Source: a virus
Lineage: Duplodnaviria; Caudoviricetes
IMG/VR virus record: IMGVR_UViG_3300033153_003999
Location: 1-63,536 of that record
DNA length: 63,536 nucleotides
Direction: 5' to 3' (one strand)
Made by a program: the position numbers and the translations under genes. The notes beneath the pieces were generated by a model. It saw only the letters and a list, made by a program, of their open reading frames with translations, was not told where the DNA came from and did not search any database. Of the stretch, positions 2,922 to 52,921 are shown in pieces (the stretch's first letter is position 1; every line of letters begins with the position of its first letter).

Positions 2922-3215
2922 ATGAACAAGGTTGAGTATCTGCTTACAGTTCTTGGCGAGGAGTGTGCCGAGGTTATCCATCGCGCGTCGAAGGTGAAGC
3001 GGTTTGGTCTGCATGAAGTCGAGCCCGGGCAACACAAGACGAATGTTGAGAGGTTGAATCTGGAGGTCAACGATCTCATGGGTGCCATCGAAGAGCTGCA
3101 AGATGCTGGTGTGGACATCGTTTTTAACATCAAAGCGATAGAGCGGAAGCGGGCCAAGATCCGGAAGTACATGCGCTACTCCCGTAAGTGCGGCTGCCTG
3201 GAAGCCGATGGATAG
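2922..3215 (+). CDS. MazG-like nucleotide pyrophosphohydrolase-fold protein
   Basis: LGEECAEV...LNLEVNDL acidic helix motifs. Confidence 0.6.
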   Translation: MNKVEYLLTVLGEECAEVIHRASKVKRFGLHEVEPGQHKTNVERLNLEVNDLMGAIEELQDAGVDIVFNIKAIERKRAKIRKYMRYSRKCGCLEADG

Positions 3216-3364
3216 GATCCATTGCGTGGCTGTCTTGTTGGCGTATTTTGCCAGCGCACACATATTCGCGGTAGCGATGGTGAGGCACGATTTTTGGTTG
3301 GCCGCGCTCTGGCTGGTGATTGGCATGTTTTACGTTCGTCAAAAAACGCTGTTAGAGGGGAGAA

Positions 3365-3907
3365 ATGGCCGTCATAAATAAACCAGGGCGCGAGCCAATC
3401 AAGTGGAATGAGCACAAAGCTCAGAACGAGCTTGCGTCGTATTGTATCCAGCGCCAGCACCAGATCTATGTCCCCAATTTTCAGGCCTTCCCTTATTTCG
3501 AGAACGATCTGGCCTCGATCACGAAGGCCGGTCTCTCGCACGTGTTTGAGATTAAATGTAGTCGCAGCGATTTTCTTAAAGAGTTTGGGCCAGGACGAGC
3601 GAGCCGCATAAAAAGTGACAGGCTGAATCAGTACGAAAGGCGAGACTGTCGAGGTGCTAATTATTTTTGGCTGGTGTGCCCGGAGAATATTATCAAGTCC
3701 ATGGACGAAATACCGGAGTGGGCTGGCGTTATTTGGCTACACCCAGACCGGGATCCGCGTGATAGCTGGTGCCGAGATCACACCGTTGAACGCACGGCGC
3801 CGAGGCTGCACGGTGAGAAGGCGAACCCCGAGGTTATTCTCAAAATGGGGCATGGTCTTGGCATTAGATACTGGGATAAGCGGAGGTTCGATCAAATAAA
3901 TGGCTAA
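3365..3907 (+). CDS. PD-(D/E)xK nuclease-like protein (MmcB-like)
   Basis: ENDL...FEIKCSRSDF...ANYFWLVCP...EIPEWAGVI. Confidence 0.65.
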   Translation: MAVINKPGREPIKWNEHKAQNELASYCIQRQHQIYVPNFQAFPYFENDLASITKAGLSHVFEIKCSRSDFLKEFGPGRASRIKSDRLNQYERRDCRGANYFWLVCPENIIKSMDEIPEWAGVIWLHPDRDPRDSWCRDHTVERTAPRLHGEKANPEVILKMGHGLGIRYWDKRRFDQING

Positions 3908-39683: not shown

Positions 39684-40652
39684 ATGCCAGAGTACGGAAT
39701 AGCGGATACGATGGCCGACCTCGAGGGCGGCGTCCAGGCTGGTCGAGAGCAGACGGCCAGAAATGAGGCGACCGACCAGGCCTTGCAGGGTGGGCGCAAC
39801 AAGCTCGCGCAGGAAGGCATGAAGGAAAGCCTTCAACGTCTTGTCATGGGCGATCCACAGGGCGCCATGGATACCTGGAACAAGACCGGCAAGCAGCGTA
39901 TGTCCGAACCGCCGTCCTACGATAAAGAGACTGGCATGGTGTCATGGCTGGAAGAAGGTGATGACGAGCCTACGCAGGCACCGCTCCGCATGATGGCCTC
40001 CATGGTTGGACTCAAGCTGCCTGAGGGCGGTGAATGGAAGCACGGCTATCGTGGGCAGTATTACAAGAGCGATACCGGTGAGACCCGCGGTATTCCTGCT
40101 CCTGAGAGCGGTGGCGCCGGCCAGCAACGACAGAGCTATAAAGCTGTTACCGACGAACTTGCGCGCCAGATGGGCGGTACCATGGACGCCATGGGCAAGT
40201 GGTCGCTACCTGCCGGTAATCAGGAAAAGTACGGCATGTTTGCGTCGATAGCCCAGCAGATTGAACAACAGGTACCTGGACGTTATCCTCCTGCCCGTAT
40301 TGCTCAGCTGGTGATGAAAGCCGGCAAAGGTTTTATCTCCGAGAAAGAGGCGCTGAAACAGGCCCGCGCTGAGGCAAAGAAGAAGGCCGGCGTGCTTACT
40401 ACCGATAAACAAGATTTCGGCATGCCGCGTGACCAGTGGGCGCAGCAACGTGCAAAAGAGATCATGCAGACTTCCAGACAGGATCTCATGCAGAAGGTCA
40501 TGGGCCAGATGGGCGCCAAACCCAAGGCTAAAGCTAAGGCCGAGAAATTGCCGCCACGCGCCATGAAGCTGCTGAAAGAAGGCAAACAAACCAGATTCCA
40601 GAACGGTCAGGTCTGGACTCTCAAAAACGGTAAAGCCGTAAAGGTTAAATAA
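39684..40652 (+). CDS. ejection (internal virion) protein
   Basis: Gln/Met/Gly-rich helical protein before the giant gene. Confidence 0.65.
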   Translation: MPEYGIADTMADLEGGVQAGREQTARNEATDQALQGGRNKLAQEGMKESLQRLVMGDPQGAMDTWNKTGKQRMSEPPSYDKETGMVSWLEEGDDEPTQAPLRMMASMVGLKLPEGGEWKHGYRGQYYKSDTGETRGIPAPESGGAGQQRQSYKAVTDELARQMGGTMDAMGKWSLPAGNQEKYGMFASIAQQIEQQVPGRYPPARIAQLVMKAGKGFISEKEALKQARAEAKKKAGVLTTDKQDFGMPRDQWAQQRAKEIMQTSRQDLMQKVMGQMGAKPKAKAKAEKLPPRAMKLLKEGKQTRFQNGQVWTLKNGKAVKVK

Positions 40653-43600
40653 TGGCGCAAGATCCATGGGCAGTTGTTACCGATGAGGGGCAAGACGATC
40701 CATGGGCTGTGGTCGTAGAAGAGAAGCCTGCCGCCGAACCCCTATCTCTATCCTTCGATCAAGGCGAAGCCGTCACCCCTGCCGGTGAAGAAAAGGTACC
40801 GTTTGGTGTCGTCCCCACTGGCTACAAAGAAGAAGTCCCCTATCTCCCGTCTGGCGAGACCATTGGAAAGGTGATCTCGACTGAAGGCGACCCCATCGGC
40901 ACCACCATCCAGAAGTCACTCACCCAAATTCCTCCACTATTACAGGCCACGGCTGGCGGCCAACTCCAAGCCCTTGGCGAGGACGTTCCCGATATTGAGC
41001 GCCTGACCGCGATTGATGTTGCTGGTGATGGAGACGAGTTCGAGATCCCTGACTATTTGCAAGACAAGCCTTCCGTAGATGCGGCTGAGTTGCTGCGCGA
41101 GACCGGCAGAAAGACCTATATGGCCGGGATGAAGGAAGCAGGGCGTCGAGCTCCAAACGTGCCGGAGGGGTCGTTCAAAAAATATGTTGCTGACGTGACG
41201 GTTGCGACAGGCCTTATGTTGCCTTCGCTCGCGGCCGGCGTTGTCACCAAGAACCCTAACGTGGCGCTGGCCGTCATGTATCCGCAGGTAGCAGGGCAGG
41301 AATACGGTCGCCAGCGGGCTGAAGGCCAAGACCGTGACGTTGCCCATGCCAGAGCCCTGGTTATCTCGTTATCAGAGATCGTCACCGAAAAGCTGCCGTT
41401 CGACCAGTTTATTAAAGGCAAGGGCAAGAACATCCTTGGCCGTATATTTAAGGCCATAGGGCTTGAGGGCGGGCAGGAGTATGTCCAGGCCGGTGTCGAG
41501 GTGTTGGTTGATGAAGGCCTGCTCGAGTGGGATATGCCTGCTGCCGAGGCTCTGAGCAAGATAGGTCAGCTCCTTGCCGACCCTGAGAATCAGAAGAAGA
41601 TGCTGTATCAGGCTCTTGTCGGCGCCGGCATGGGCGGTGTTCTCGGTACCCCCGCTGCCATTGCACAGGGTTTCCAAAAGCCGGGAGAGGCCATACCAGA
41701 TGACGTGGAGCCAATACCGGGCTTTAAGGCCGAGGATTTGTTTGGTGCCGTGGAAGAGGAAGAGGTTGCCCCGGCCCCTGAACTTGAAGCACCTGTTGAC
41801 GAGTGGGCGGAAGAAGAACCGCCAGCTCCGGAAGAGGACTACACCGAGCCAGAGCCCAGCTACGGGATCCCCGAACCAGAGGCAGTGGCGCCGCCAGAGC
41901 CGGAGATCGTGGAGCCAGCTGCAGAGGAGCGTGCTCCAACCATCAAACCGTGGAAGGGTAGAAAGCGGTATGGTATGCAGCCGGTAGACGCGCGCTATGA
42001 CGACCTTCTTGCCGTTGCTGCCAAGAGTGGCGGTATCAATATCGACGCCGCTACCAGCGAGGGCATAGATCCTGCCATCTTGCGAGACCGCTTGGGCGGC
42101 GGCAAGATGCCGGTATTCCGCAAGGAAGGCGGAATGACTATCGATTCCTTGGCTGAAAAACTGGAAGAGCTGGGCTTTATCGATGAACGTGACGCCAATG
42201 CGGCGCTCGATGTTCTGACCGACGCCGTGACCAAGGAGGCTGCTGGCGAACGCGTGTACTCGAATCAGGTCGATGCCGACATGCTGGCCGAGACCAGGAA
42301 AGAGCCGACCCCGGAAGAGGAGGCCTTCGAGCCCACCGACGTTAAGCAGGATCTCGACGATCTCATGGAGCAGGCCCAGGAAGCGGCCACCACGCAGGAG
42401 CAAGAGCTTAGGCTCGAGCGCATATTGTCCCGCGACATCGAGACTCCTGACGCCGAAATGCAGCAGGCTCTCGCCGACTTTATCGACGAGACCCGCACCC
42501 TGGCACCAAAGGCGTCAACTACCGCTATCCCTGAACAGGAAAGCCGTCGTCGTAATATCGCCTACCGGAAAGATCTTGAGCAGTTGACGCCTGACGAAAT
42601 GCGCGAGGCCGTTGCTAAATTGCGCGAGGACGCGACCCGCGATCCCATGACTGGGGCGCGCTCGTTCTCAGCTTTTGAGGATGATGCCGACCTGGGCTGG
42701 GAATATGTTGGCGCTGCCGACATGGACGGCATGGGCTGGTACAACGATAACTGGGGCCATCAGGCCACCAACGATCTGCTTAAATCTGTGGCAGACGCTA
42801 TGAATACAGTGGAAACGGAGCAAGTGCGTTTCTACCGGCTGCATGGTGACGAGTTTGCCGTGCGAGCCACCAGCGAGGAATTTGCCCGGTCTGCACTGGA
42901 AGAGGTACAGAAATTGCTTGCCTCTTCACCCGTGGAAGTGAGCGGGCTCAATGAAAAAGGTGAGCGCCAGACTTTCAAAACGGAAGGATTAGGCATAACC
43001 TACGGTGTAGCGAAGAGCTACGAGGAGGCTGATAGTGAAGCAAATGAATGGAAGCAAAAGCGCCAGCAGCGCGGCAAGCGGGCTGCAAAAGGTAAGGAAC
43101 CTGTTGGTCTGGGCAAAAAGCCTGCCGCCGTTGAAAAACGTCCGCGTGAAGGTATCCCTACCGAAGAAGGCGTAGCCGACACCGAGATCACAAAACAGGT
43201 AGACGCTAAGAAGAAAAAGAAGGTTGTATCAAGGCCGGCACAAAGGAAAGCCAAGGTCTACCAGCCTATTAGTGATGGTGTTCTTACTCACACCAAGCTC
43301 TTTGGCGATAGCTCTGGTGCTAAGTCCTTGAAGTCTCAAAGTTTTAAGTCTCTCAAGAGGGACGAACAACATGTGGTGCTCACGAAGATGAGAGCTGCGT
43401 TTAACGACGACAAGATTTTCAGGGCTGTTATCAATACCATTCCCGTTGATATGATGAACGTCCTCATCGGGAAGAAGTGGTCTACCAAGGATCTCCTCCA
43501 TAACAAGTCTATGCTCACCAATAGGCTTACCGTCTCGCGTAACGTACCGATAACGAAGTCCATAATCAGCGTCATCGATGAGCTTTCTGCCGCGATCGAA

Positions 43601-46600
43601 GGTAGACCTACACAGGCGGTTACAAAAAAACCTAGTTTGCGTGGCCGCCCTAGCCTTGTTGAGCTTCCTGGTGACAGGGGTGCCGCAGTTAAGGCAATTA
43701 GCGGTGATATTTGGCATGGAAAAATAGCTGGTCAAGAAGTAGAAGTTGACCTTAACCCAACAGAAGCACAAAAGGAAGCAGGGAATTATTCCAAAGGGGC
43801 AATCTCAATTCAAGGCCTAGACATTACCATTGAGAACCCGAAGGGCAGCCGGCGCCGTCCCGAGTGGCCGGAACTCACAGCCCATTATGGTTACATCAAG
43901 CGCACCGAAGGCGCTGACGGAGACCATGTCGATGTGTTCCTTGGCGACAATGCCGAGACTGCTGGCACCCTGTTTATCATCGACCAGAACGACCCCAAGA
44001 CAGGCAAGTTTGACGAGCACAAGGTCGTCATCGGCCCGTTCAATGAGGTCGATGCGGTCAATCTGTACAACTCAAATTATGAGAAAGGCTGGCGTGGTGC
44101 CGAGGCCGTCAATGAACTGGATATTGCTGACTTCAAGGTATGGCTGGAGAAGGGCGATACCACCAAACCATTCGCAGACCAGGCAAATGCCGCATGGTCG
44201 CAGGAGAAGCCCACAAAATACGATAAATATGCCGATGAACTGAAAACTTTGATTCGCGTGGAAGGCATTAAGGAAGCTGCCCTGGCGCTGATTAAGAGTG
44301 GCAAGGATCCGCGCACGATGACGAAGCCAAAGGCTTTGTCTGATTCGCTTAACAATCAGTCGGTGTTGAGTTATGTCTTTGAGCAGAGCGAAAAAGCCAT
44401 CGAGACCGAGCTGGATAAGGTTGAGAAAAAAGAGGGCAAAGCCTTTGCAGATGAAATGCAGCGGCACGTTGTCGCTACTTTTCTCGAAAGCACTGAACCA
44501 ACCATGCTCAGCGGCGAAAATCTGCGCCTATTGGTGAAGGAGTATGAAGCTGCGCTGGTCAAGATAGATCTTGTTGAGCCGGAGGTTATTGCAAAACCAG
44601 AAGCGGTCGCACCAGAAGGAAGCGAGGAAATTTATACCAGGATCCGCGCCTACAACGAGAAAGACTTCCAACAGGAGCGCGTGGAAAATCTGCGCCTGAT
44701 GGCTAAAGCACTCGGTTTCAGCAAAGTATCCACCAAGCCAAAACAGGATCTCATTAAGGAACTGACGATCTGGCGTGATGCCAGCGCGATCAGCAAACTG
44801 CCAATCCCTGGCGATATAACCCTAATTCAGGAGGACCAGGAAACGATTGCCGGAGAAGCTATCACCCTGGTTACCGTGCCAGAAGGCACTAAACCCGAAA
44901 CCGTTGAAAAGCTGGAAATAATCTCCAGGCATTTCGGTGGAACAGGCTATACTGAGAGCAAGGCAGTCAAGGGAAGCACTGAAAAGGGGCTCCGGTTCCG
45001 TGATAGAACCGGCCTCGATAACTTCCTCGACTACGTGGAGACCGCCCATGAACCTACAGAACTGGAAAGACCAAGCCCGCGACCACTGGAAGGAGCACCT
45101 GCCGAAAAGGTACAAGGCGTTGCTCCAGAAAGGGGCGCTCGAGGCGTCACTGAACGAGGCCGTGATCGCGACAGAGCGCGAGATGAACGCGCTGACGAAC
45201 GCGGGCCAGGAAGAGTGGGAGGCGTGGGAGCAGGTCAGGCAGAGCTATCTCTTCCTGTCGCCCGAGCAGACACCGGCCACGACTACGTAATTACTGCCGA
45301 AGACAGTCTCGGTGCCGGTGGCGCCAAGACCAAGGCCGCGGCCAACATCGAGGCAATTCGCCTCCTCAAACAAATCGAAGTCGAACAACGTCAGGCCACG
45401 CCCGAAGAGCAGGCTGCCCTCGTTAAGTACGTGGGCTGGGGCGGAATCCCGCAGATCTTCGACAAAGACAACACTGGATGGGCCAATGAATATTTCGAGC
45501 TGAAGAACACGCTGACAAGCGAAGAGTATGCTGCTGCCCGTCGTTCTACCCAGGACGCGCACTACACGTCACCGACTGTGGTTAAGGGCATATTCGACGC
45601 CCTGCACCGGTTCGGGTTCAAGCATGGTCGCATCCTCGAGCCATCAATGGGCACCGGCAACTTCTTCGGCATGATGCCGGTCGAGGTTCGCGGCAAGTCC
45701 AAAATGACCGGCGTCGAGCTGGATCACATCACTGGCGGTATCGCCAAACTCCTGTACCCCACCTACGATATTCACTCTCCCAAGGGATTCCAGGAAGTAG
45801 ACGTTCCCGAGGGCTACTTCGATATTGCTATCGGCAATCCTCCCTTTGGATCCCAGAAGGTGTTCGATGCCAAGCACAAGGATATTTCCGAGTTCTCGAT
45901 CCACAACTATTTCTTCGCCAAGTCGCTGCTGAGTGTGCGGCGGGGTGGCGTTATCGCCATGGTGGTCAGCAACTCCCTGCTGGACAAGTTCGGTGGCGCC
46001 CAGCGTGCGTGGCTGGCAGAGCGGGCTAGATTCCTTGGCGCCATTCGTTTGCCGAACAACGCCTTTAAGAAAAATGCGGGCACAGAAGTCACGACCGACA
46101 TCATCTTCCTGCAACGCAAGGCCAGTATCGGAGCACCGACAAAGGGTAAGAGCTGGGCAGACATCAACGACACTGTTTCGGATCCGGCGACCGGCAAGCC
46201 GATACCGATGAACGAGTATTTTGTTGCGCGCCCGGAAATGATGCTTGGCGAAATGACGCTCGGCGGCACGATGTATCGTGGCGAAATGGCGGCATTGATC
46301 GCGCCCGAAGGCCAGAACCTTGAGAAGGCGCTTGCCGACGCTGTCAAAAACCTGCCTGAGTTTATCTACGAGGAAAGCCATGGTCGGGTAGCGGAGATTA
46401 CGGAAGCTGATTCCGTCATGCCGCTGGACGAGATCAAGGTCTACAGCTACTTCGTAAACGAGAAGGGTGAGGTCAGTCGCCGTCTGCCGGATCAGATGGA
46501 CAAGGCGCAGATGGAGGTCATGGATTTATCGCCAACGGTGTCGGCCCGCATGAAGGGGTTGGTCAAATTGCGGGATCTCGTCCGTCGTCAGATGCACGAC

Positions 46601-49600
46601 GAAATGAGCGTCGATGCCACGGAGAAGAACCTGGACGGCTTCCGTATGCGATTGAATCTTGAGTACGATCGCTTCACCAAGAAGTACGGCGCCATCCACG
46701 CCGAGGGCAACAAGCGCGCCTTCCGTGACGACCCGGATTATGGTCTGTTGCAGGCGCTTGAAGTCGATTATGACAAAGGCATAAGCAAGGCCGTTGCCAA
46801 AAAATCTGGTGTCGAGGCCGTTAAGCCCAGCTGGAAAAAGGCTGACATATTTACCAAGCGCGTGCTCGTACCTTACAAGCCCGTCGATTCTGCCGAGACA
46901 GCCGAAGATGCGTTGCTCGTCACCCTGGCTGAGAAGGGTTTTGTCGATATTGAGCACATGGCGAAGCTGACCGGGCAGGAAGAGGTTGATCTTGTTGCCG
47001 AACTAAAAGGCATCATTTTTAATGATCCCGAGCTGGGGTGGACGACAGCTGATGATTATTTGTCTGGCAATGTTAAGCATAAGCTCAAAATTGCACGTGA
47101 AGCCGGGTTATCAGACTACGCAGAAGCTCTTGAGAAAGTGCAGCCAGAAGATACTGAGGCTATCGACATCGATGCCAGCATGGGTGCCCCGTGGGTGCCT
47201 GCTGCTGACGTGAAAGCCTTTGTGAAGGAATTGCTCGACGTTGATGCAGCCCTGTCATATCAGCCTACTGTCGGCGCATGGTTCGCCAAGATCCCGACCG
47301 CCTACGGTGTGGCCGGTACCGAGGTATGGGGTACACCGAAAGCCAACGCCAGCTATCTGATTGAGCAGGCGCTCAAGGGCAAGAACGTGGTCGTGCGCGA
47401 CAAGGTCAAAGGCCCGGACGGTGATATTTCCGTTATCAACCAGCCCAAGACTGCTGCGGCACAGCTGAAAATGAAAGAGATCAAGCGCGAGTTTGCTGAC
47501 TGGCTCTGGCACGATCAGGCAAGGCGCACCCGCTTGGCGAAGTATTACAACGACACGTATAACACTAACCGCGTGCGTGAGTTCAAGGATCCTGGCCTGC
47601 AATTCCCGGGCATGAACCCAGCCATTACCTTGCGGCCGCACCAGAGAGATTTGGTTTGGCGTATTATTCAAGAAGGCCGGGGATTGCTCGATCACGTTGT
47701 CGGCGCGGGCAAAACTTTTGCCGCTATCGCTGCCGTTATGGAAATGCGTCGCATGGGTCTCGTTCGTAAGCCGATAATTACGGTGCCGAATCATTTAGTG
47801 ACCCAGTGGGCAGGTGACTTCCATCAGCTCTACCCGGGGGCCAAGATCCTGGCAGCTACCAAGAAGGATTTCCAGAAGGCTAATCGTCAACGCCTGTTCG
47901 CCCGCATTACTACCGGTGACTGGGACGCGATTATTGTCGCTCACTCCAGTTTCGAGCGTGTGCCGGTTCCACCTGAGTTCGAGGCCGAGCTGTTAAAGCA
48001 ACAGATCACCGACATTGATGCTGCCATGACCTCCCTCAAGGAAGAAACCGGCGACCGGATCTCGGTCAAGCAGCTCGAGAAACAGAAGGATCGAGTCAAG
48101 GAAAAGATGGAGCGCGCTGCCAAGGGCAAGGAAAAGGACACGGGCGTTAACTTCGCTGAAATGGGTATCGATCAGCTTATCGTGGACGAGAGCCACGTGT
48201 TTAAGAACCTGTTCTTCTCCACCAGCAAGACTCGTGTCGCCGGCATTGGCGACGGTACCGGCAGTCAGCGTGCCTTCGATATGTTCGTGAAGAATCGTTA
48301 CCTGCAAAAACTGAACAACGGTAAGGGCACGATCTTCCTTACCGGTACGCCTATCAGCAACACGATTGCCGAGATGTACACCGTTCAACGCTATCTCCAG
48401 TACGACGAGCTTGCCAGTCGTGGTCTCGCCCACTTCGATGCCTGGGCCAACGTATTCGGCAATGTCGTCAGCGGGTGGGAGCTGGATGCTACCGGCGTGA
48501 ATTACAAGATGAACAGCAGGTTTGCCGAGTTCGTCAACATGCCGGAATTGATGACGCTCTATCGCAGCGTGGCCGACGTCGTGAATCAGGAAGATCTCAA
48601 GCGTCAGGCTAAGGCTGCCGGCAATGTCTGGCCGGTTCCAGACATTAAAGGCGGCAAGCCTGAGTCCGTGATCGCGCCCAGGTCGGACTATCAGACAAGG
48701 TATATGATGGACATCGTTCACCGCGCTGAGAATATGCCGACGGATTCCAGCATAGACAATATGCTCAAGGTCACGAACGACGCCAGAAAGATGGCGCTCG
48801 ACATGCGTCTTATCGATCCCGTGGCTGAGGACTTCCCGGACAGCAAGGTCAACAAGGCTGTTGATCGTGTCTACGATATTTATAAGAAATGGGATAGTCG
48901 TAAAGGCACGCAATTGATCTTCTCGGATCTGTCCACACCGAAGGGGGCCAAGAAAGTTGTGGTCATTACCGGCGAAGAGGTCGAGACCGAAGGCCTGTCC
49001 ATGGACGATATCCTCGCAGCTGGCTCTAAATTCGATGTCTATAACGACATTAAAGCCAAGCTGATTAAGAAGGGTATCCCCGAAGCCCAGATCAGGTTTA
49101 TCCACGACGCCAACACCGATCTGCAAAAAGATCAGCTATTCAAGGACATGAACACCGGCAAGGCGCGCGTGCTCATAGGATCCACGGAGAAGATGGGCAC
49201 TGGCACGAATGTACAGCGCAGACTCGTTGCCCTTCATCACCTGGACGCGCCTTGGCGGCCGTCAGATATTGAACAGCGCGAAGGCCGTATCGTGCGCCAG
49301 GGCAATGAATTCTTTATGCAGGCGCTCGAGGCCGGGGATCCTTCCAGCTTTGAGGTCGAGGTATTGCGCTACGCCACCGAGCGAACCTATGACGCTCGCA
49401 TGTGGCAGACCCTTGAGGTTAAGGCCAAGTTCATCGAACAGCTTCGCAAGGGAGACACCAGCCTGCGTAAAGTCGAGGACGTGGCCGGCGAGGCTGCCAA
49501 CTTTGCTGACCTGAAAGCTGCTGCTACTGGCAACCCGCTTATATTGGAGCAGGTCAAACTCGCTGCCCAGGTGCAGAAGTACGACCAACTCAACACCCAG

Positions 49601-52600
49601 CACAAGCGCAAGATCATGCGCCTGCAAGACACGGTCTCACGATTGGCTGATTTTGATTCTCGTTTCGATGCTGACCTTGCCAACGTGCAGGCCGACATAA
49701 AGACAAGGGACGACAATACGGCGAAGGATTTCGACGACAAGGGCTTTGTGGTCACGATCAAGGGCAAGAAAGTTACGGACAAGGCCGAGGCCGCCAAGCG
49801 TCTCGAGGTCGAGGCCGTGAAGTTCATTAAAGTGGCTCCGATTATGATGCACGTCGGTACCTATCGCGGGTTCCCAATGGAGTTTGAGAAAGGCGTGTTC
49901 GGCTTCAAGGTTCTGCTGGACGGCAAGGGCCACGACTATGTCTCCTCTTACAAAGTGACGGACAAGATCAGCGGCAGCGGCATGCTTACGCGCTTGAACA
50001 ACCGGCTCGACGAGATCGACAAACGGGAGGACTGGCTCAAGGATCGCCGCGACCAGGAAGCCATCAACTATAAAAAAGCGCAGGCAGAGGTCGAGAAACC
50101 GTTTAGCGAACAGGCTGAAATGGACAGGGTCAATAAGCAGTTTGGCTACGTCATGGCTGAGCTGGAACGGATGAAGGATCCGAAATACGATCCACAGGAC
50201 ATGGAGACCGTGCTGGAAGGCAAGGTGCCCGAGAAACCAGAGGGGCCGATTCTGTACGCCAATCCGCTGCCGCTGATCGTGAAAGAAATGTGGAAGCAGG
50301 CGAAGAAGGGGCAACCGCTCGAGCGCTTCATGCGGATCCCGTTTCATATCATTGGTCACATCGATCCCAAGGGTGTGTGGCATGCGCCGCTATCAATTCA
50401 GAAAGCTGCCGGCGCTGCCCGTGGCGCTATCGATGCCGCTGCCAAGGCGACCGGGGAAAAGATCCCGTGGCTGGCGCACCAGGTCGAGAACGCGAGGGTC
50501 GGGCTGATTGATCGCTATGGCCTGCCCGAGGACTATAAGAAACGAGACATCGAGCGCGAGACCCAGGAGCGCGAGCTTTTGATTACTGCTCGTGACTTCA
50601 TTCAGGAAATGGAGCGCCGTGGCATGGATGCCAGAGAGGCGGAAGTCTTTCACTCCATGGTCACTGGCGAGGATATTCCGAGCGAGAAGTGGAACGATCT
50701 TTCTGACGAGATCCGGCTCGCCATCGATGAAATGGGCCGCGAGGCTGTGCACCTGGGCCTGATCTCGGAAGAGTCGTACCAGAAGAATAAAGGCGCCTAC
50801 CTGCATCGTGTCTATCTCAAGCACGAAGGCGGTGGCGGCAAATTGATGCGCTGGGCTCACGGTCTCGAGACAGTCAAACGCAAAAAGTTTATCGGCAACG
50901 AACTCAAGGGCCGCGGCATCGACATGGAGGTAACCATGGAGAAGCTGCTGACGCTCATGCCGCAGGACTGGTGGGGTCGGAAGATGCAGAAGGAAGAGGC
51001 TGACGCTGCCTTGCGTGGAATGAAATTCCACGTGTTCGACCGTCTGTCAAAACCGAAGGGTGAGACCAAGCGCAAGATCGTAGAACGTGTTTACTGGCCG
51101 TCAACCAAGCCGGTGCCGATTAGGTTCGACGCCTGGGAGAGTCGCGGCGAGTACGAGGTCAGATCCGTTGGCAAGAAGGTGCGGCTCTGGCGTGACTTCA
51201 CCAAGGCTGAGCGTGAATCCATGGGCGAGATCTTGGACGCACGCTACACCATTGGCAAGACGTTCATGCTTATGTCGCACGATCTGGCTGTTGGCAGGTT
51301 CTATCGTGACATCGCGCTTAATGAGGCGTGGTCTCGCAAGGATCCTCCGCCTCCCATGGATGACGGACACCCGAGCTGGACGACGCCGAGACACCGTAAC
51401 GCTACCTACACCGATGTTGAGTGGGTGCTCGTGCCCAGCGACAAGATCCCGGGCGCTGCAGCTGCCAAGTGGGGCGGCATGGCCGGCATGTACGTGCGCA
51501 AAGAGATCTGGATGGATCTCAACCAGCTGGACATTATGAACACACCGGCTTTCTGGCGCCGGCTAATGACCATGTGGAAGGTCAATAAGACTGCCCGCAG
51601 CCCGGTCGTGCACATGAATAACGTGATGTCGAACTTCGTCTTTATGGATATGGCCGATATTAGATTCCGTGATCTGGTCAAAGGCCTCCGGGAATATGTG
51701 AAGAAGGGCAAGCACTACGAGGACGTCAAACTCCATGGCGGTTTCGGTGGATCCTTCGCCGACCAGGAACTACGCCGGGAAGTGCTCGAGCCCATTCTCC
51801 GGGATCTGCTCAAGAGCATGGAAGGCGAACTTGTTGCCGGCGATCAAGGCCCGAGAAACGCCATGGGCGTGATGTGGAAGTTCTTGGATGATGCCTACCG
51901 CATGCTGAGAAAGGTCGATAATAAATTCATTGATCTATATCAACTCGAGGACGAAGTTTTCAGGATGGCTACCTATATGCGCCGCATCGATCTCGGCGAC
52001 ATACCGTCTGAGGCCGCGATCACGGCCAGGGATCAATTCCTGAACTACGACATCAGGGCGCCATGGGTTAACACGGCTAGATCTACCGTGCTGCCGTTCA
52101 TCGGTTACACCTATCGAGCTGTGCCCGTGATCGCCAAGAGTCTGGCCCAGAGGCCGTGGAAGCTCGCCAAGTACGCGACCGTGGCTTGGATGGCAAACTA
52201 CCTGGGATACATGTTCGCGCCAGGTGACGAGGACGAGGAGCGCAGATCCATGCGCGAGGAAGTCGCTGGCCGGACATGGCTCGGCACCTATCGCATGATT
52301 CGCATGCCGTATCGTGACGCCTATGGTAATCCGGTGTTTCTCGACGTCCGTCGCTGGATCCCGGCCGGCGATATTTTTGATACGAATCAGGGACAGGTCT
52401 CGTTCATACCGGCGCCGCTGCAATTTGGCGGGCCGCTGATGATCGCCGCCGAATTCCATTTGAATAAGGTGGCCTTCACCGGGCGCGAGATCGTGAACCC
52501 GGACGTTGATTCCGGCATGGAGCAGGCCGCCAACTACGCGGACTGGCTCTGGAAGTCGTGGATGCCGTCGGCGCCATGGGTTCCAGGTGGCTGGTACTGG

Positions 52601-52921
52601 GATAAGATTGGCCGTTCCGTCAGAGGTGGCCGGGACATGATGGGCCGCCCCTACAGCTTGCCACAGGCCGGCCTGTCATCATTTGGCATTAAAGTGCAGC
52701 CGCACGATGTCCAGATGGGTCTCCAGTTCCATGGCCGTCGCTACAAGAAGGAAGAGTCTGCGCTCGATTTCCAGATGCGGAGGGCTAGTGGCGACCGCGA
52801 TCGCGGGATCATTAGCGAGAATGAGTACCTGAAAATTAAGAACTCGAACGAGAAGAAGCGCCAGCGCTTAATGCGGCGTGCAGCTAAGACCTTTGGTCAG
52901 GGCGCTGTTGCCAATGATTGA
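40652..52921 (+). CDS. giant polyvalent DarB-like ejection protein (4089 aa): GGDEF-like, InPase-like, N6-adenine methyltransferase, SNF2 helicase, helical C-terminus
   Basis: RLHGDEF; PTEAQKEAGNY.KG..HYGYI..GADGDHVD; LEPSMGTG and GNPPF; DHVVGAGKT, VDESH, TGTP, QREGRIVRQGN. Confidence 0.92.
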   Translation: MAQDPWAVVTDEGQDDPWAVVVEEKPAAEPLSLSFDQGEAVTPAGEEKVPFGVVPTGYKEEVPYLPSGETIGKVISTEGDPIGTTIQKSLTQIPPLLQATAGGQLQALGEDVPDIERLTAIDVAGDGDEFEIPDYLQDKPSVDAAELLRETGRKTYMAGMKEAGRRAPNVPEGSFKKYVADVTVATGLMLPSLAAGVVTKNPNVALAVMYPQVAGQEYGRQRAEGQDRDVAHARALVISLSEIVTEKLPFDQFIKGKGKNILGRIFKAIGLEGGQEYVQAGVEVLVDEGLLEWDMPAAEALSKIGQLLADPENQKKMLYQALVGAGMGGVLGTPAAIAQGFQKPGEAIPDDVEPIPGFKAEDLFGAVEEEEVAPAPELEAPVDEWAEEEPPAPEEDYTEPEPSYGIPEPEAVAPPEPEIVEPAAEERAPTIKPWKGRKRYGMQPVDARYDDLLAVAAKSGGINIDAATSEGIDPAILRDRLGGGKMPVFRKEGGMTIDSLAEKLEELGFIDERDANAALDVLTDAVTKEAAGERVYSNQVDADMLAETRKEPTPEEEAFEPTDVKQDLDDLMEQAQEAATTQEQELRLERILSRDIETPDAEMQQALADFIDETRTLAPKASTTAIPEQESRRRNIAYRKDLEQLTPDEMREAVAKLREDATRDPMTGARSFSAFEDDADLGWEYVGAADMDGMGWYNDNWGHQATNDLLKSVADAMNTVETEQVRFYRLHGDEFAVRATSEEFARSALEEVQKLLASSPVEVSGLNEKGERQTFKTEGLGITYGVAKSYEEADSEANEWKQKRQQRGKRAAKGKEPVGLGKKPAAVEKRPREGIPTEEGVADTEITKQVDAKKKKKVVSRPAQRKAKVYQPISDGVLTHTKLFGDSSGAKSLKSQSFKSLKRDEQHVVLTKMRAAFNDDKIFRAVINTIPVDMMNVLIGKKWSTKDLLHNKSMLTNRLTVSRNVPITKSIISVIDELSAAIEGRPTQAVTKKPSLRGRPSLVELPGDRGAAVKAISGDIWHGKIAGQEVEVDLNPTEAQKEAGNYSKGAISIQGLDITIENPKGSRRRPEWPELTAHYGYIKRTEGADGDHVDVFLGDNAETAGTLFIIDQNDPKTGKFDEHKVVIGPFNEVDAVNLYNSNYEKGWRGAEAVNELDIADFKVWLEKGDTTKPFADQANAAWSQEKPTKYDKYADELKTLIRVEGIKEAALALIKSGKDPRTMTKPKALSDSLNNQSVLSYVFEQSEKAIETELDKVEKKEGKAFADEMQRHVVATFLESTEPTMLSGENLRLLVKEYEAALVKIDLVEPEVIAKPEAVAPEGSEEIYTRIRAYNEKDFQQERVENLRLMAKALGFSKVSTKPKQDLIKELTIWRDASAISKLPIPGDITLIQEDQETIAGEAITLVTVPEGTKPETVEKLEIISRHFGGTGYTESKAVKGSTEKGLRFRDRTGLDNFLDYVETAHEPTELERPSPRPLEGAPAEKVQGVAPERGARGVTERGRDRDRARDERADERGPGRVGGVGAGQAELSLPVARADTGHDYVITAEDSLGAGGAKTKAAANIEAIRLLKQIEVEQRQATPEEQAALVKYVGWGGIPQIFDKDNTGWANEYFELKNTLTSEEYAAARRSTQDAHYTSPTVVKGIFDALHRFGFKHGRILEPSMGTGNFFGMMPVEVRGKSKMTGVELDHITGGIAKLLYPTYDIHSPKGFQEVDVPEGYFDIAIGNPPFGSQKVFDAKHKDISEFSIHNYFFAKSLLSVRRGGVIAMVVSNSLLDKFGGAQRAWLAERARFLGAIRLPNNAFKKNAGTEVTTDIIFLQRKASIGAPTKGKSWADINDTVSDPATGKPIPMNEYFVARPEMMLGEMTLGGTMYRGEMAALIAPEGQNLEKALADAVKNLPEFIYEESHGRVAEITEADSVMPLDEIKVYSYFVNEKGEVSRRLPDQMDKAQMEVMDLSPTVSARMKGLVKLRDLVRRQMHDEMSVDATEKNLDGFRMRLNLEYDRFTKKYGAIHAEGNKRAFRDDPDYGLLQALEVDYDKGISKAVAKKSGVEAVKPSWKKADIFTKRVLVPYKPVDSAETAEDALLVTLAEKGFVDIEHMAKLTGQEEVDLVAELKGIIFNDPELGWTTADDYLSGNVKHKLKIAREAGLSDYAEALEKVQPEDTEAIDIDASMGAPWVPAADVKAFVKELLDVDAALSYQPTVGAWFAKIPTAYGVAGTEVWGTPKANASYLIEQALKGKNVVVRDKVKGPDGDISVINQPKTAAAQLKMKEIKREFADWLWHDQARRTRLAKYYNDTYNTNRVREFKDPGLQFPGMNPAITLRPHQRDLVWRIIQEGRGLLDHVVGAGKTFAAIAAVMEMRRMGLVRKPIITVPNHLVTQWAGDFHQLYPGAKILAATKKDFQKANRQRLFARITTGDWDAIIVAHSSFERVPVPPEFEAELLKQQITDIDAAMTSLKEETGDRISVKQLEKQKDRVKEKMERAAKGKEKDTGVNFAEMGIDQLIVDESHVFKNLFFSTSKTRVAGIGDGTGSQRAFDMFVKNRYLQKLNNGKGTIFLTGTPISNTIAEMYTVQRYLQYDELASRGLAHFDAWANVFGNVVSGWELDATGVNYKMNSRFAEFVNMPELMTLYRSVADVVNQEDLKRQAKAAGNVWPVPDIKGGKPESVIAPRSDYQTRYMMDIVHRAENMPTDSSIDNMLKVTNDARKMALDMRLIDPVAEDFPDSKVNKAVDRVYDIYKKWDSRKGTQLIFSDLSTPKGAKKVVVITGEEVETEGLSMDDILAAGSKFDVYNDIKAKLIKKGIPEAQIRFIHDANTDLQKDQLFKDMNTGKARVLIGSTEKMGTGTNVQRRLVALHHLDAPWRPSDIEQREGRIVRQGNEFFMQALEAGDPSSFEVEVLRYATERTYDARMWQTLEVKAKFIEQLRKGDTSLRKVEDVAGEAANFADLKAAATGNPLILEQVKLAAQVQKYDQLNTQHKRKIMRLQDTVSRLADFDSRFDADLANVQADIKTRDDNTAKDFDDKGFVVTIKGKKVTDKAEAAKRLEVEAVKFIKVAPIMMHVGTYRGFPMEFEKGVFGFKVLLDGKGHDYVSSYKVTDKISGSGMLTRLNNRLDEIDKREDWLKDRRDQEAINYKKAQAEVEKPFSEQAEMDRVNKQFGYVMAELERMKDPKYDPQDMETVLEGKVPEKPEGPILYANPLPLIVKEMWKQAKKGQPLERFMRIPFHIIGHIDPKGVWHAPLSIQKAAGAARGAIDAAAKATGEKIPWLAHQVENARVGLIDRYGLPEDYKKRDIERETQERELLITARDFIQEMERRGMDAREAEVFHSMVTGEDIPSEKWNDLSDEIRLAIDEMGREAVHLGLISEESYQKNKGAYLHRVYLKHEGGGGKLMRWAHGLETVKRKKFIGNELKGRGIDMEVTMEKLLTLMPQDWWGRKMQKEEADAALRGMKFHVFDRLSKPKGETKRKIVERVYWPSTKPVPIRFDAWESRGEYEVRSVGKKVRLWRDFTKAERESMGEILDARYTIGKTFMLMSHDLAVGRFYRDIALNEAWSRKDPPPPMDDGHPSWTTPRHRNATYTDVEWVLVPSDKIPGAAAAKWGGMAGMYVRKEIWMDLNQLDIMNTPAFWRRLMTMWKVNKTARSPVVHMNNVMSNFVFMDMADIRFRDLVKGLREYVKKGKHYEDVKLHGGFGGSFADQELRREVLEPILRDLLKSMEGELVAGDQGPRNAMGVMWKFLDDAYRMLRKVDNKFIDLYQLEDEVFRMATYMRRIDLGDIPSEAAITARDQFLNYDIRAPWVNTARSTVLPFIGYTYRAVPVIAKSLAQRPWKLAKYATVAWMANYLGYMFAPGDEDEERRSMREEVAGRTWLGTYRMIRMPYRDAYGNPVFLDVRRWIPAGDIFDTNQGQVSFIPAPLQFGGPLMIAAEFHLNKVAFTGREIVNPDVDSGMEQAANYADWLWKSWMPSAPWVPGGWYWDKIGRSVRGGRDMMGRPYSLPQAGLSSFGIKVQPHDVQMGLQFHGRRYKKEESALDFQMRRASGDRDRGIISENEYLKIKNSNEKKRQRLMRRAAKTFGQGAVAND
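43229..43717 (-). CDS. HNH homing endonuclease nested antisense in the giant ORF
   Basis: CLNCG..FCNRLC; EHRLVMEEILGRPL.P.EDVHHING...DNSPENL..H...H; C-terminal HTH. Confidence 0.88.
   Translation of the reverse strand: MPNITANCLNCGTPVTRKLNKARAATQTRFFCNRLCRSTFDRGRKLIDDADYGLRYRYVTRDGKPIGEHRLVMEEILGRPLLPDEDVHHINGNGIDNSPENLVVVKRSSHLREHHMLFVPLERLKTLRLQGLSTRAIAKELGVSKNTITNRLVDLGFPLCRP
45048..45290 (+). CDS. overprinted +1-frame gene, TnpV-like small helical protein (80 aa)
   Basis: GGAGAC RBS before ATG; ARDHWKEHLPKRYKALLQKGALEASL...EAWEQVR..YL. Confidence 0.65.
   Translation: MNLQNWKDQARDHWKEHLPKRYKALLQKGALEASLNEAVIATEREMNALTNAGQEEWEAWEQVRQSYLFLSPEQTPATTT

Follow-up and report, generated by a model that had tools for sequence, protein, structure and literature searches.

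We describe here a small gene that, in all likelihood, lies genuinely nested in the +1 frame of the giant gene for a polyvalent DarB-like protein in the virus record IMGVR_UViG_3300033153_003999, a complete, metagenome-derived virus genome of 63.5 kb that was analysed over its whole length (63,536 nucleotides (nt), in the following termed the window). The small open reading frame (ORF) at 45048-45290 has a Shine-Dalgarno (SD)-like sequence and an ATG start codon of its own and would encode a free, mildly acidic four-helix protein of 80 amino acids (aa) that is distantly similar to TnpV. An earlier note on this DNA, made from the sequence alone, had proposed a hidden gene at this place, and the proposal is now strongly supported by a conserved ORF, by the ATG with its SD element, by purifying selection in the +1 frame and by a confidently predicted fold. 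The small ORF (start codon ATG at 45048-45050, stop codon TAA at 45288-45290) is wholly contained in the giant ORF on the same strand (Table 1), and its coordinates and frame bear out what had been read from the letters, namely an 80-codon +1 ORF just in front of the methyltransferase domain. The GGAGAC motif that had been seen ahead of the ATG is present, and the giant frame over the same bases, which begins with HEPTELERPSPRPLEGAPAEKVQGVAPERGARGVTERGRDRDRARDERADERGPGRVGG and had been taken for an R/G/E-rich linker, is indeed rich in R, G, E, D and A and predicted to form coil. Directly 3' of the stop codon of the small ORF, the methyltransferase part opens with DYVITAEDSLGAGG.

According to the reading that we prefer, ribosomes would start at the internal SD element and ATG on the mRNA of the giant gene, and the product would be a free 80-aa four-helix protein. 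The giant frame over the overlap is a spacer, predicted to be disordered and drifting in sequence, that is kept free of stop codons and so joins the N-terminal modules to the methylase-helicase. The small protein, in turn, may work together with the methylase-helicase, be it as a helper in folding, packaging or docking, or as a regulator.

Conservation and start signals of the small frame

A tblastn search with the small protein against 50,697 phage records, a check that the earlier note had suggested in order to find the same +1 ORF upstream of DarB-like domains, retrieved 21 records representing 11 distinct phages (44-53% identity) with hosts from the genera Pseudomonas, Erwinia, Klebsiella, Vibrio, Agrobacterium, Sinorhizobium, Ochrobactrum and Microcystis. 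In 10 of these 11 phages, the giant frame is free of stop codons over the whole 3.2-kb locus and the homologue is a short +1 ORF bounded by stop codons. The matches all lie under a giant DarB-like coding sequence (CDS), with the exception of that in Itty13, which lies under CDSs on the opposite strand, and the small ORF is annotated in none of the 11 phage records. In Itty13 (Pseudomonas phage, MW460249.1, 5006-11419, L001), two annotated CDSs run antisense to the frame that is open over the 3.2-kb locus; judged from the sequence, a DarB-like giant gene seems to have remained unannotated there, with antisense ORFs annotated instead. A search of plasmids with tblastn yielded a single record, a 59-kb replicon of Brucella pseudintermedia, in which the match lies under a PLxRFG giant protein.

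An alignment-based scan of IMG/VR provided 85 relatives, 80 of which were kept; a few of these contigs duplicate named phages (L015 is PBC5, L054 is VvAW1, L081 is LASTA or SJM3, and L083 is SopranoGao). The homologues of the small gene in these viral contigs share 35-57% identity with it and occupy the +1 position in 79 of 80 cases. Stop codons are absent from the giant frame across the entire locus in 62 of the 80 contigs; in 79, the open stretch begins no less than 268 nt upstream and reaches the 3' end of the locus. In every one of the 78 loci that reach its 3' end, the small ORF closes with a stop codon while the giant frame continues; the loci L039 and L084 end earlier. The earlier note had named missing homologues and an unconserved +1 frame among the findings that would refute its proposal; homologues do exist, and the +1 relation is conserved in all but one of the 11 phages and in all but one of the 80 contigs. 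In two contigs (L044 and L046), the methylase-helicase gene has its start close to the small ORF, 310 and 625 nt upstream of it, which indicates that the small gene travels with the methylase end and not with the N-terminal modules. Two simpler searches were negative: a word-index search with the 80-aa protein returned nothing in the range of 44-140 aa, and none of eight pattern matches from a single-sequence scan of viral contigs was confirmed before the alignment-based scan succeeded.

The start signals were analysed in the 80 loci plus the phage under study (81 in total). The codon that coincides with residue 1 in the alignment, or lies immediately ahead of it, is ATG in 78 loci, GTG in two and TTG in one. 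One of the tetramers AGGA, GGAG or GAGG is present at positions -17 to -5 in 76 of the 81 loci, whereas other ATGs in the same loci have such a tetramer in 7.8% of cases (554 of 7090) and positions overall in 11%. The residues that the giant frame encodes over the bases of the start signal differ between lineages, and the signal therefore does not simply reflect conservation of a peptide in the giant frame. An in-frame stop codon precedes the start by 6 nt or less in eight loci and by 30 nt or less in 23, slippery heptamers of the type X_XXY_YYZ occur in only two, and a scan for sigma-70-like promoters between 44300 and 45500, which included about 750 bases upstream of the small ORF, found no site. 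Because of the upstream stop codons, the rarity of the heptamers and the lack of a promoter, internal initiation on the mRNA of the giant gene is favoured over frameshifting.

A programmed +1 (or -2) shift of ribosomes out of the giant frame, with no start of its own for the small frame, is nevertheless the alternative that survives best, improbable as we consider it. It would yield, beside the full-length protein, a shorter product that consists of the N-terminal modules plus the four-helix domain and ends at 45290. Such a product would resemble the proteins of phrog_938 and P0146, which carry the domain as their C-terminal end, and the arrangement in Sinorhizobium phage PBC5, whose upstream body is in the frame of the domain and whose protein terminates 25 codons beyond the domain. 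Ribosomal shifting can moreover be stimulated by an SD-like element, as in prfB and dnaX, and such an element would in this respect suit a shift. A start codon at the first aligned residue, needless for a shift, is however kept in all 81 loci, the in-frame stop codons at 6 nt or less (8 of 81) and 30 nt or less (23 of 81) upstream stand in the way of it, and the bases just upstream are not conserved except for the SD element. The rarity of heptamers (two of 81 loci) likewise speaks against it, as far as the X_XXY_YYZ type goes, since no scan was made for other, +1-specific shift motifs. A conserved shift site of this type that makes a separate start dispensable, which is the mark of programmed frameshifting, is not what these loci contain.

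The PBC5 exception (L002/L015) deserves a closer description. The upstream protein of this phage comprises 2180 aa and ends with the four-helix domain, and no stop codon interrupts the methylase frame from 268 nt upstream onwards. When PBC5 is compared to Atu_ph08, the switch of frame falls near 'AAEVE', some 40 nt ahead of the ATG of the small ORF, and the RefSeq entry carries no annotation over the methylase part that follows. The arrangement is either genuinely split and fused or due to an indel in the 2002 record. The relationship as such is clear: the small protein of the window matches the C-terminal end of phrog_938 (positions 2084-2161 of 2185; expectation value (E) 4.2e-18), to which PBC5 gp22/orf33 belongs, and in both phages the domain sits at the same position before the methylase gene. 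In PBC5, it is the in-frame end of a long protein, whereas in the phage studied here and in most relatives it is a separate ORF, in the +1 frame relative to the giant frame and hence not an in-frame module of the phrog_938 kind.

Selection on the two overlapping frames

When sequences with nucleotide identities of at least 90% were removed, 60 of the 81 loci were left as a non-redundant set. In the small frame, nucleotide diversity at codon positions 1, 2 and 3 was 0.382, 0.364 and 0.475 over all columns and 0.119, 0.049 and 0.380 over the best-conserved columns, while equally conserved columns of the methylase, taken as the control, gave 0.075, 0.041 and 0.506. The third position of the giant frame coincides with the second position of the small frame and is the least variable one, so that the variability of the giant frame over the overlap is, in these alignments, the reverse of a coding pattern. 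Amino-acid diversity amounted to 0.517 in the small frame versus 0.661 in the giant frame (60 sequences). Substitutions were classified in 21 independent pairs at 80-98.5% identity with a total of 477 single-base differences. Changes that are silent in the small frame and replacing in the giant frame accounted for 242 of these (50.7% observed versus 19.2% of the possible changes, ratio 2.64), and those that are replacing in the small frame and silent in the giant frame for 70 (14.7% versus 29.4%, ratio 0.5). The substitutions identify the small frame as the one under amino-acid selection.

The giant frame is nonetheless kept open. It is free of stop codons in 60 of the 60 sequences versus 3.4 expected if the small proteins are held fixed and their synonymous codons drawn at random, the expected openness being 5.6% on average and 3.1% for the phage of the window. 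A T at the third position of the small frame before AA, AG or GA was encountered in none of 1267 cases, compared with 11.3% elsewhere. Taken from these comparisons, the overlap is a case of true dual coding with unequal constraint, in which both frames are kept by selection.

These data also bear on the possibility that the small ORF is a silent relic, i.e., a former in-frame domain or gene that has come to lie out of frame, is no longer translated and owes its conservation to constraint on the giant frame. Homologous domains do exist in-frame elsewhere, and there is some conservation in both frames. A relic would however require an intact ORF, a start codon and an SD element in 80 of 80 contigs at 35-57% identity, the substitutions favour the small frame about 5-fold (2.64 versus 0.5), and the position that ought to vary most if the giant frame imposed the constraint, its third, varies least. 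We regard a relic as very improbable. The odds are longer still for an artefact of assembly or sequencing, in which the domain is truly in-frame and two compensating indels mimic an overlap: the record of the window is metagenome-derived and the old PBC5 record shows a different frame relation, yet the +1 relation recurs in 10 of the 11 isolates, each sequenced independently, and in 79 of the 80 contigs, and the small ORF is closed by a stop codon in each of the 78 loci that extend to its 3' end, while the giant frame runs on. A chance ORF within a moderately GC-rich gene, finally, which could draw on the probability of 0.26 for an open +1 frame and on several similar +1 stretches in the giant gene (both detailed below), is contradicted by homology, start signals, selection and fold and can practically be dismissed.

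The small protein and its possible partner

The structure of the nested gene's product was predicted by AlphaFold2 from a 58-row alignment with a mean predicted local distance difference test score (pLDDT) of 88.8 and a predicted template modelling score of 0.70. The four predicted helices (residues 3-17, 19-28, 31-51 and 56-67) agree with the helical protein that had been anticipated from the letters. In a matched control with residues 1430-1640 of the giant protein (57-row alignment), the overlap appeared as coil with mean pLDDT values of 48-64 in blocks of 10 residues, and the N-terminus of the methylase reached block values of 87-97. The small-protein family is mildly acidic (median isoelectric point 5.0).

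The resemblance to TnpV that the earlier note had pointed to is weakly supported. The Pfam profile TnpV (PF14198) matches the small protein at E 0.012 with 16.0 bits and thus stays below the gathering cut-off of 27 bits; it finds 40 of 58 relatives at E ≤ 0.1 (best 3.6e-5), and the next family, DUF6074, finds five of 58. The likeness is weak and sub-threshold, but consistent among the relatives. The two small proteins are both helical and share their series of motifs, residues 3-62 of the small protein aligning with profile positions 23-82. TnpV is encoded by a small gene of Tn4451-type mobilisable transposons and integrative and conjugative elements, beside the large serine recombinase TnpX, and its Xis-like role in excision is only postulated (PMC3158075). 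The small ORF, in contrast, is nested in a gene of the phage structural region, and the ORF map places no serine recombinase next to it and does not portray it as a stand-alone gene beside TnpX. An Atlas search pointed to unnamed clusters at 0.87 and to one cluster with 11% TnpV members at 0.84, which are leads only.

A profile search of 1.84 billion representative proteins returned 1438 matches at E ≤ 0.001, 524 of them at E ≤ 1e-10, and most of the 150 matches listed are 73-185 aa in length. The domain also forms, in-frame, the end of P0146 (956 aa) and of the NCBI protein P0161 (312 aa). It opens proteins that contain hydrophobic, membrane-like segments (P0023, P0040/P0165 and P0014) as well as P0028, which has a module that is also present upstream in PBC5. 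Since it is read in-frame in P0146, P0161, P0023 and P0028, the four-helix domain is, as far as sequence comparison can tell, a real and mobile protein module that is used outside DarB-like genes. No NCBIfam family was found for P0001, a sequence profile search of the PDB retrieved only designed helical repeats (best E 0.0013), and Foldseek detected nothing in the PDB at E ≤ 0.001. The sole match in BFVD was Q8W6J4_2 (template modelling score 0.90, 50% identity); we infer that Q8W6J4 is the PBC5 protein. The best match of a VIA wide search, 2apl_A (Z 7.2, root-mean-square deviation 3.0, 73 residues aligned), is a functionally uncharacterised protein and has a score that is common for helical bundles.

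The small frame belongs to this wider domain family, and the giant-frame spacer is disordered and drifting; for this reason the small gene is probably the older reading and the spacer secondary, so that the term 'overprinted', which the earlier note had applied to the small gene, would run the other way. That the small protein is a dedicated partner of the methylase-helicase, which the earlier note had imagined as a chaperone, inhibitor or packaging factor, is plausible, because the small gene is always located at the 5' edge of the methylase-helicase module and is fused to the preceding protein in PBC5. The small gene keeps its position before the methylase part even if the methylase-helicase gene has a start of its own, as in L044 and L046. 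The methylase part itself shares 39-49% identity with its relatives (alignment A3). A prediction of the complex between this part (767 aa) and the small protein (alignment A2) gave a score of 0.00 with a mark of 0.32, which counts neither way.

Several observations weigh against a free small protein that is dedicated to the methylase. Its translation is something that we infer from the sequence. The length of the ORF taken alone is unremarkable: when synonymous codons were drawn at random without altering the giant protein, the +1 frame was open over these 80 codons in 26% of the trials, and several +1 stretches from stop to stop in the giant gene extend over 110-151 codons, among them stretches of 151, 140, 140, 122 and 118. 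It is homology, the conserved start signals and frame-specific selection that go, in the sequence comparisons, beyond chance. At 0.38-0.475, diversity at third positions in the overlap is below that of the control (0.506-0.581), so the giant frame appears to add some constraint, at least part of which would be avoidance of stop codons. As the domain continues the frame of the upstream protein in PBC5, a free small protein would not be the only route of delivery, and the occurrence of fused forms outside the methylase context weakens the idea of a dedicated function. The same applies to contig L035, in which an intact small ORF of 112 codons has been kept in a decayed, 241-codon remnant of the methylase gene (2982-3707) whose frame is lost after the LFTIAPATIGQGGKK start. 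The small proteins in the databases derive mostly from contigs under 2 kb and do not represent a stand-alone gene; the five that were looked up (P0008, P0009, P0010, P0029 and P0014) stem from contigs of 570-1945 bases, and they are no proof of an independent gene because a giant ORF that is cut short allows a gene caller to pick the small ORF. The fold searches, in addition, gave no functional lead from the predicted model.

The question of how far the arrangement extends was approached via the methylase part, relatives of which are present in 90 phage records; six of these without a detectable homologue of the small protein were inspected. In five (Bcep22, Gervaise, 8P, PalP_Y7 and BKO1-TP3), an R/G-rich stretch of the giant frame precedes the methylase in every case, and a +1 ORF of 87-107 codons starts from an ATG at the same place (Table 1), unannotated in all five records. 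The sixth, a Streptococcus phage, has neither an R/G-rich stretch nor such a +1 ORF. The Bcep22 ORF recurs in 41 records, 10 from Burkholderia and 31 from Ralstonia, at 36-100% identity and each time under a giant CDS, frames having been checked for Bcep22 and Gervaise only. Comparison of the distant +1 ORFs with the small-protein family by hmmsearch gave E values of 0.00096 and 0.018, and hhalign of alignment A2 with the ORFs of Bcep22, Gervaise and 8P placed them on the same motif with probabilities of 36.9%, 4.4% and 0.5%. These values are no more than suggestive of homology between the two sets. It is a tentative and rather doubtful extension of our reading that all DarB-like giant genes of the group, the Bcep22-like and Ralstonia ones included, carry an obligatory cassette of an ancient helper and an overlaid spacer, with a small protein that folds, docks, packages or restrains the injected methylase-helicase. 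If it were true, the fused domain in PBC5 would be a non-covalent link between the two halves of the giant gene's product.

Known embedded genes and features of the locus

Phages are known to have embedded +1 genes; in phiX174, E lies inside D and K extends across A and C. Like Rz1 in Rz of lambda and many other phages, the small gene described here is a complete +1 gene that is enclosed by an ORF in another frame and has a conserved start codon and ribosome-binding site, and both readings are kept by selection. An 'embedded class' of Rz/Rz1 has been described for the Bcep22-like phage JC1, whose virion proteins were identified by mass spectrometry (PMC9144972). The present case differs in that the host gene encodes a virion-delivered polyvalent protein of roughly 4000 aa of which the overlapped segment is only a disordered spacer, in that the product is predicted to be a soluble four-helix protein and neither a lipoprotein nor a lysis protein, and in that the amino-acid constraint resides in the embedded and not in the host frame. 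The host gene itself, with its methyltransferase, SNF2 helicase and extra modules, resembles P1 DarB and the polyvalent proteins (Iyer et al. 2017, PMC5512222), whereas the embedded gene is outside the architecture described in that study. The words 'frameshift', 'overlapping', 'PBC5' and 'TnpV' do not occur in its main text. A literature search of incomplete coverage, and hence no proof of absence, found no embedded gene in DarB-like or polyvalent genes.

DarB-like giant proteins occupy about a fifth of many phage genomes and are annotated as one gene. The same gene within a gene, which recurs unannotated at this site in many phages that are only distantly related, would add an unrecognised player to the biology of phage anti-restriction and ejection, and the odd R/G-rich 'linker' before the methylase would be explained as the shadow of another gene. 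The overlap would also be a clear example from nature of constraint on the embedded frame, with a host frame that need only stay open, and it serves as a warning that gene callers systematically miss such embedded genes.

Table 1. Features of the giant gene and its embedded ORF in the window, and comparable +1 ORFs in more distant phages (positions refer to the window unless giant-protein residues or a locus are given)
Feature	Position	Strand	Remarks
Giant ORF, polyvalent DarB-like	40652-52921	+	4089 aa, single ORF
GGDEF-like domain	giant residues 690-796		Pfam
InPase domain	giant residues 1038-1166		Pfam
Giant-frame spacer	45047-45280	+	giant residues 1466-1543; R/G/E/D/A-rich, predicted disordered, stop-free across the small gene
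Shine-Dalgarno-like GGAGAC	45037-45042	+	GGAG ends 7 nt 5' of the ATG
Embedded small gene	45048-45290	+	80 codons + TAA, +1 frame of the giant ORF
Start of adenine-methyltransferase part	45281-47581	+	giant residues 1544-2310
DarB-like antirestriction region (phrog_10089)	giant residues 1497-3177		PHROGs match
Eco57I-type adenine methyltransferase	giant residues 1708-1796		Pfam
SNF2 helicase	giant residues 2325-2884		Pfam
Further out-of-frame ORFs in giant gene	41574-41987, 42273-42587, 43830-44243, 49209-49514, 51087-51539	+	
Bcep22 +1 ORF	L092 1127-1447		AGGAGG before ATG
Gervaise +1 ORF	L093 1142-1462		AGGAGG before ATG
8P +1 ORF	L094 1115-1384		GAAGGG before ATG
PalP_Y7 +1 ORF	L095 1139-1432		
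BKO1-TP3 +1 ORF	L097 1154-1414		

Besides the small gene, the giant gene contains five more out-of-frame ORFs of 101-150 codons on the same strand (Table 1), which may be due to chance given the simulated openness of the +1 frame. An antisense ORF of 180 codons is located inside the giant gene at 43229-43771 on the minus strand.

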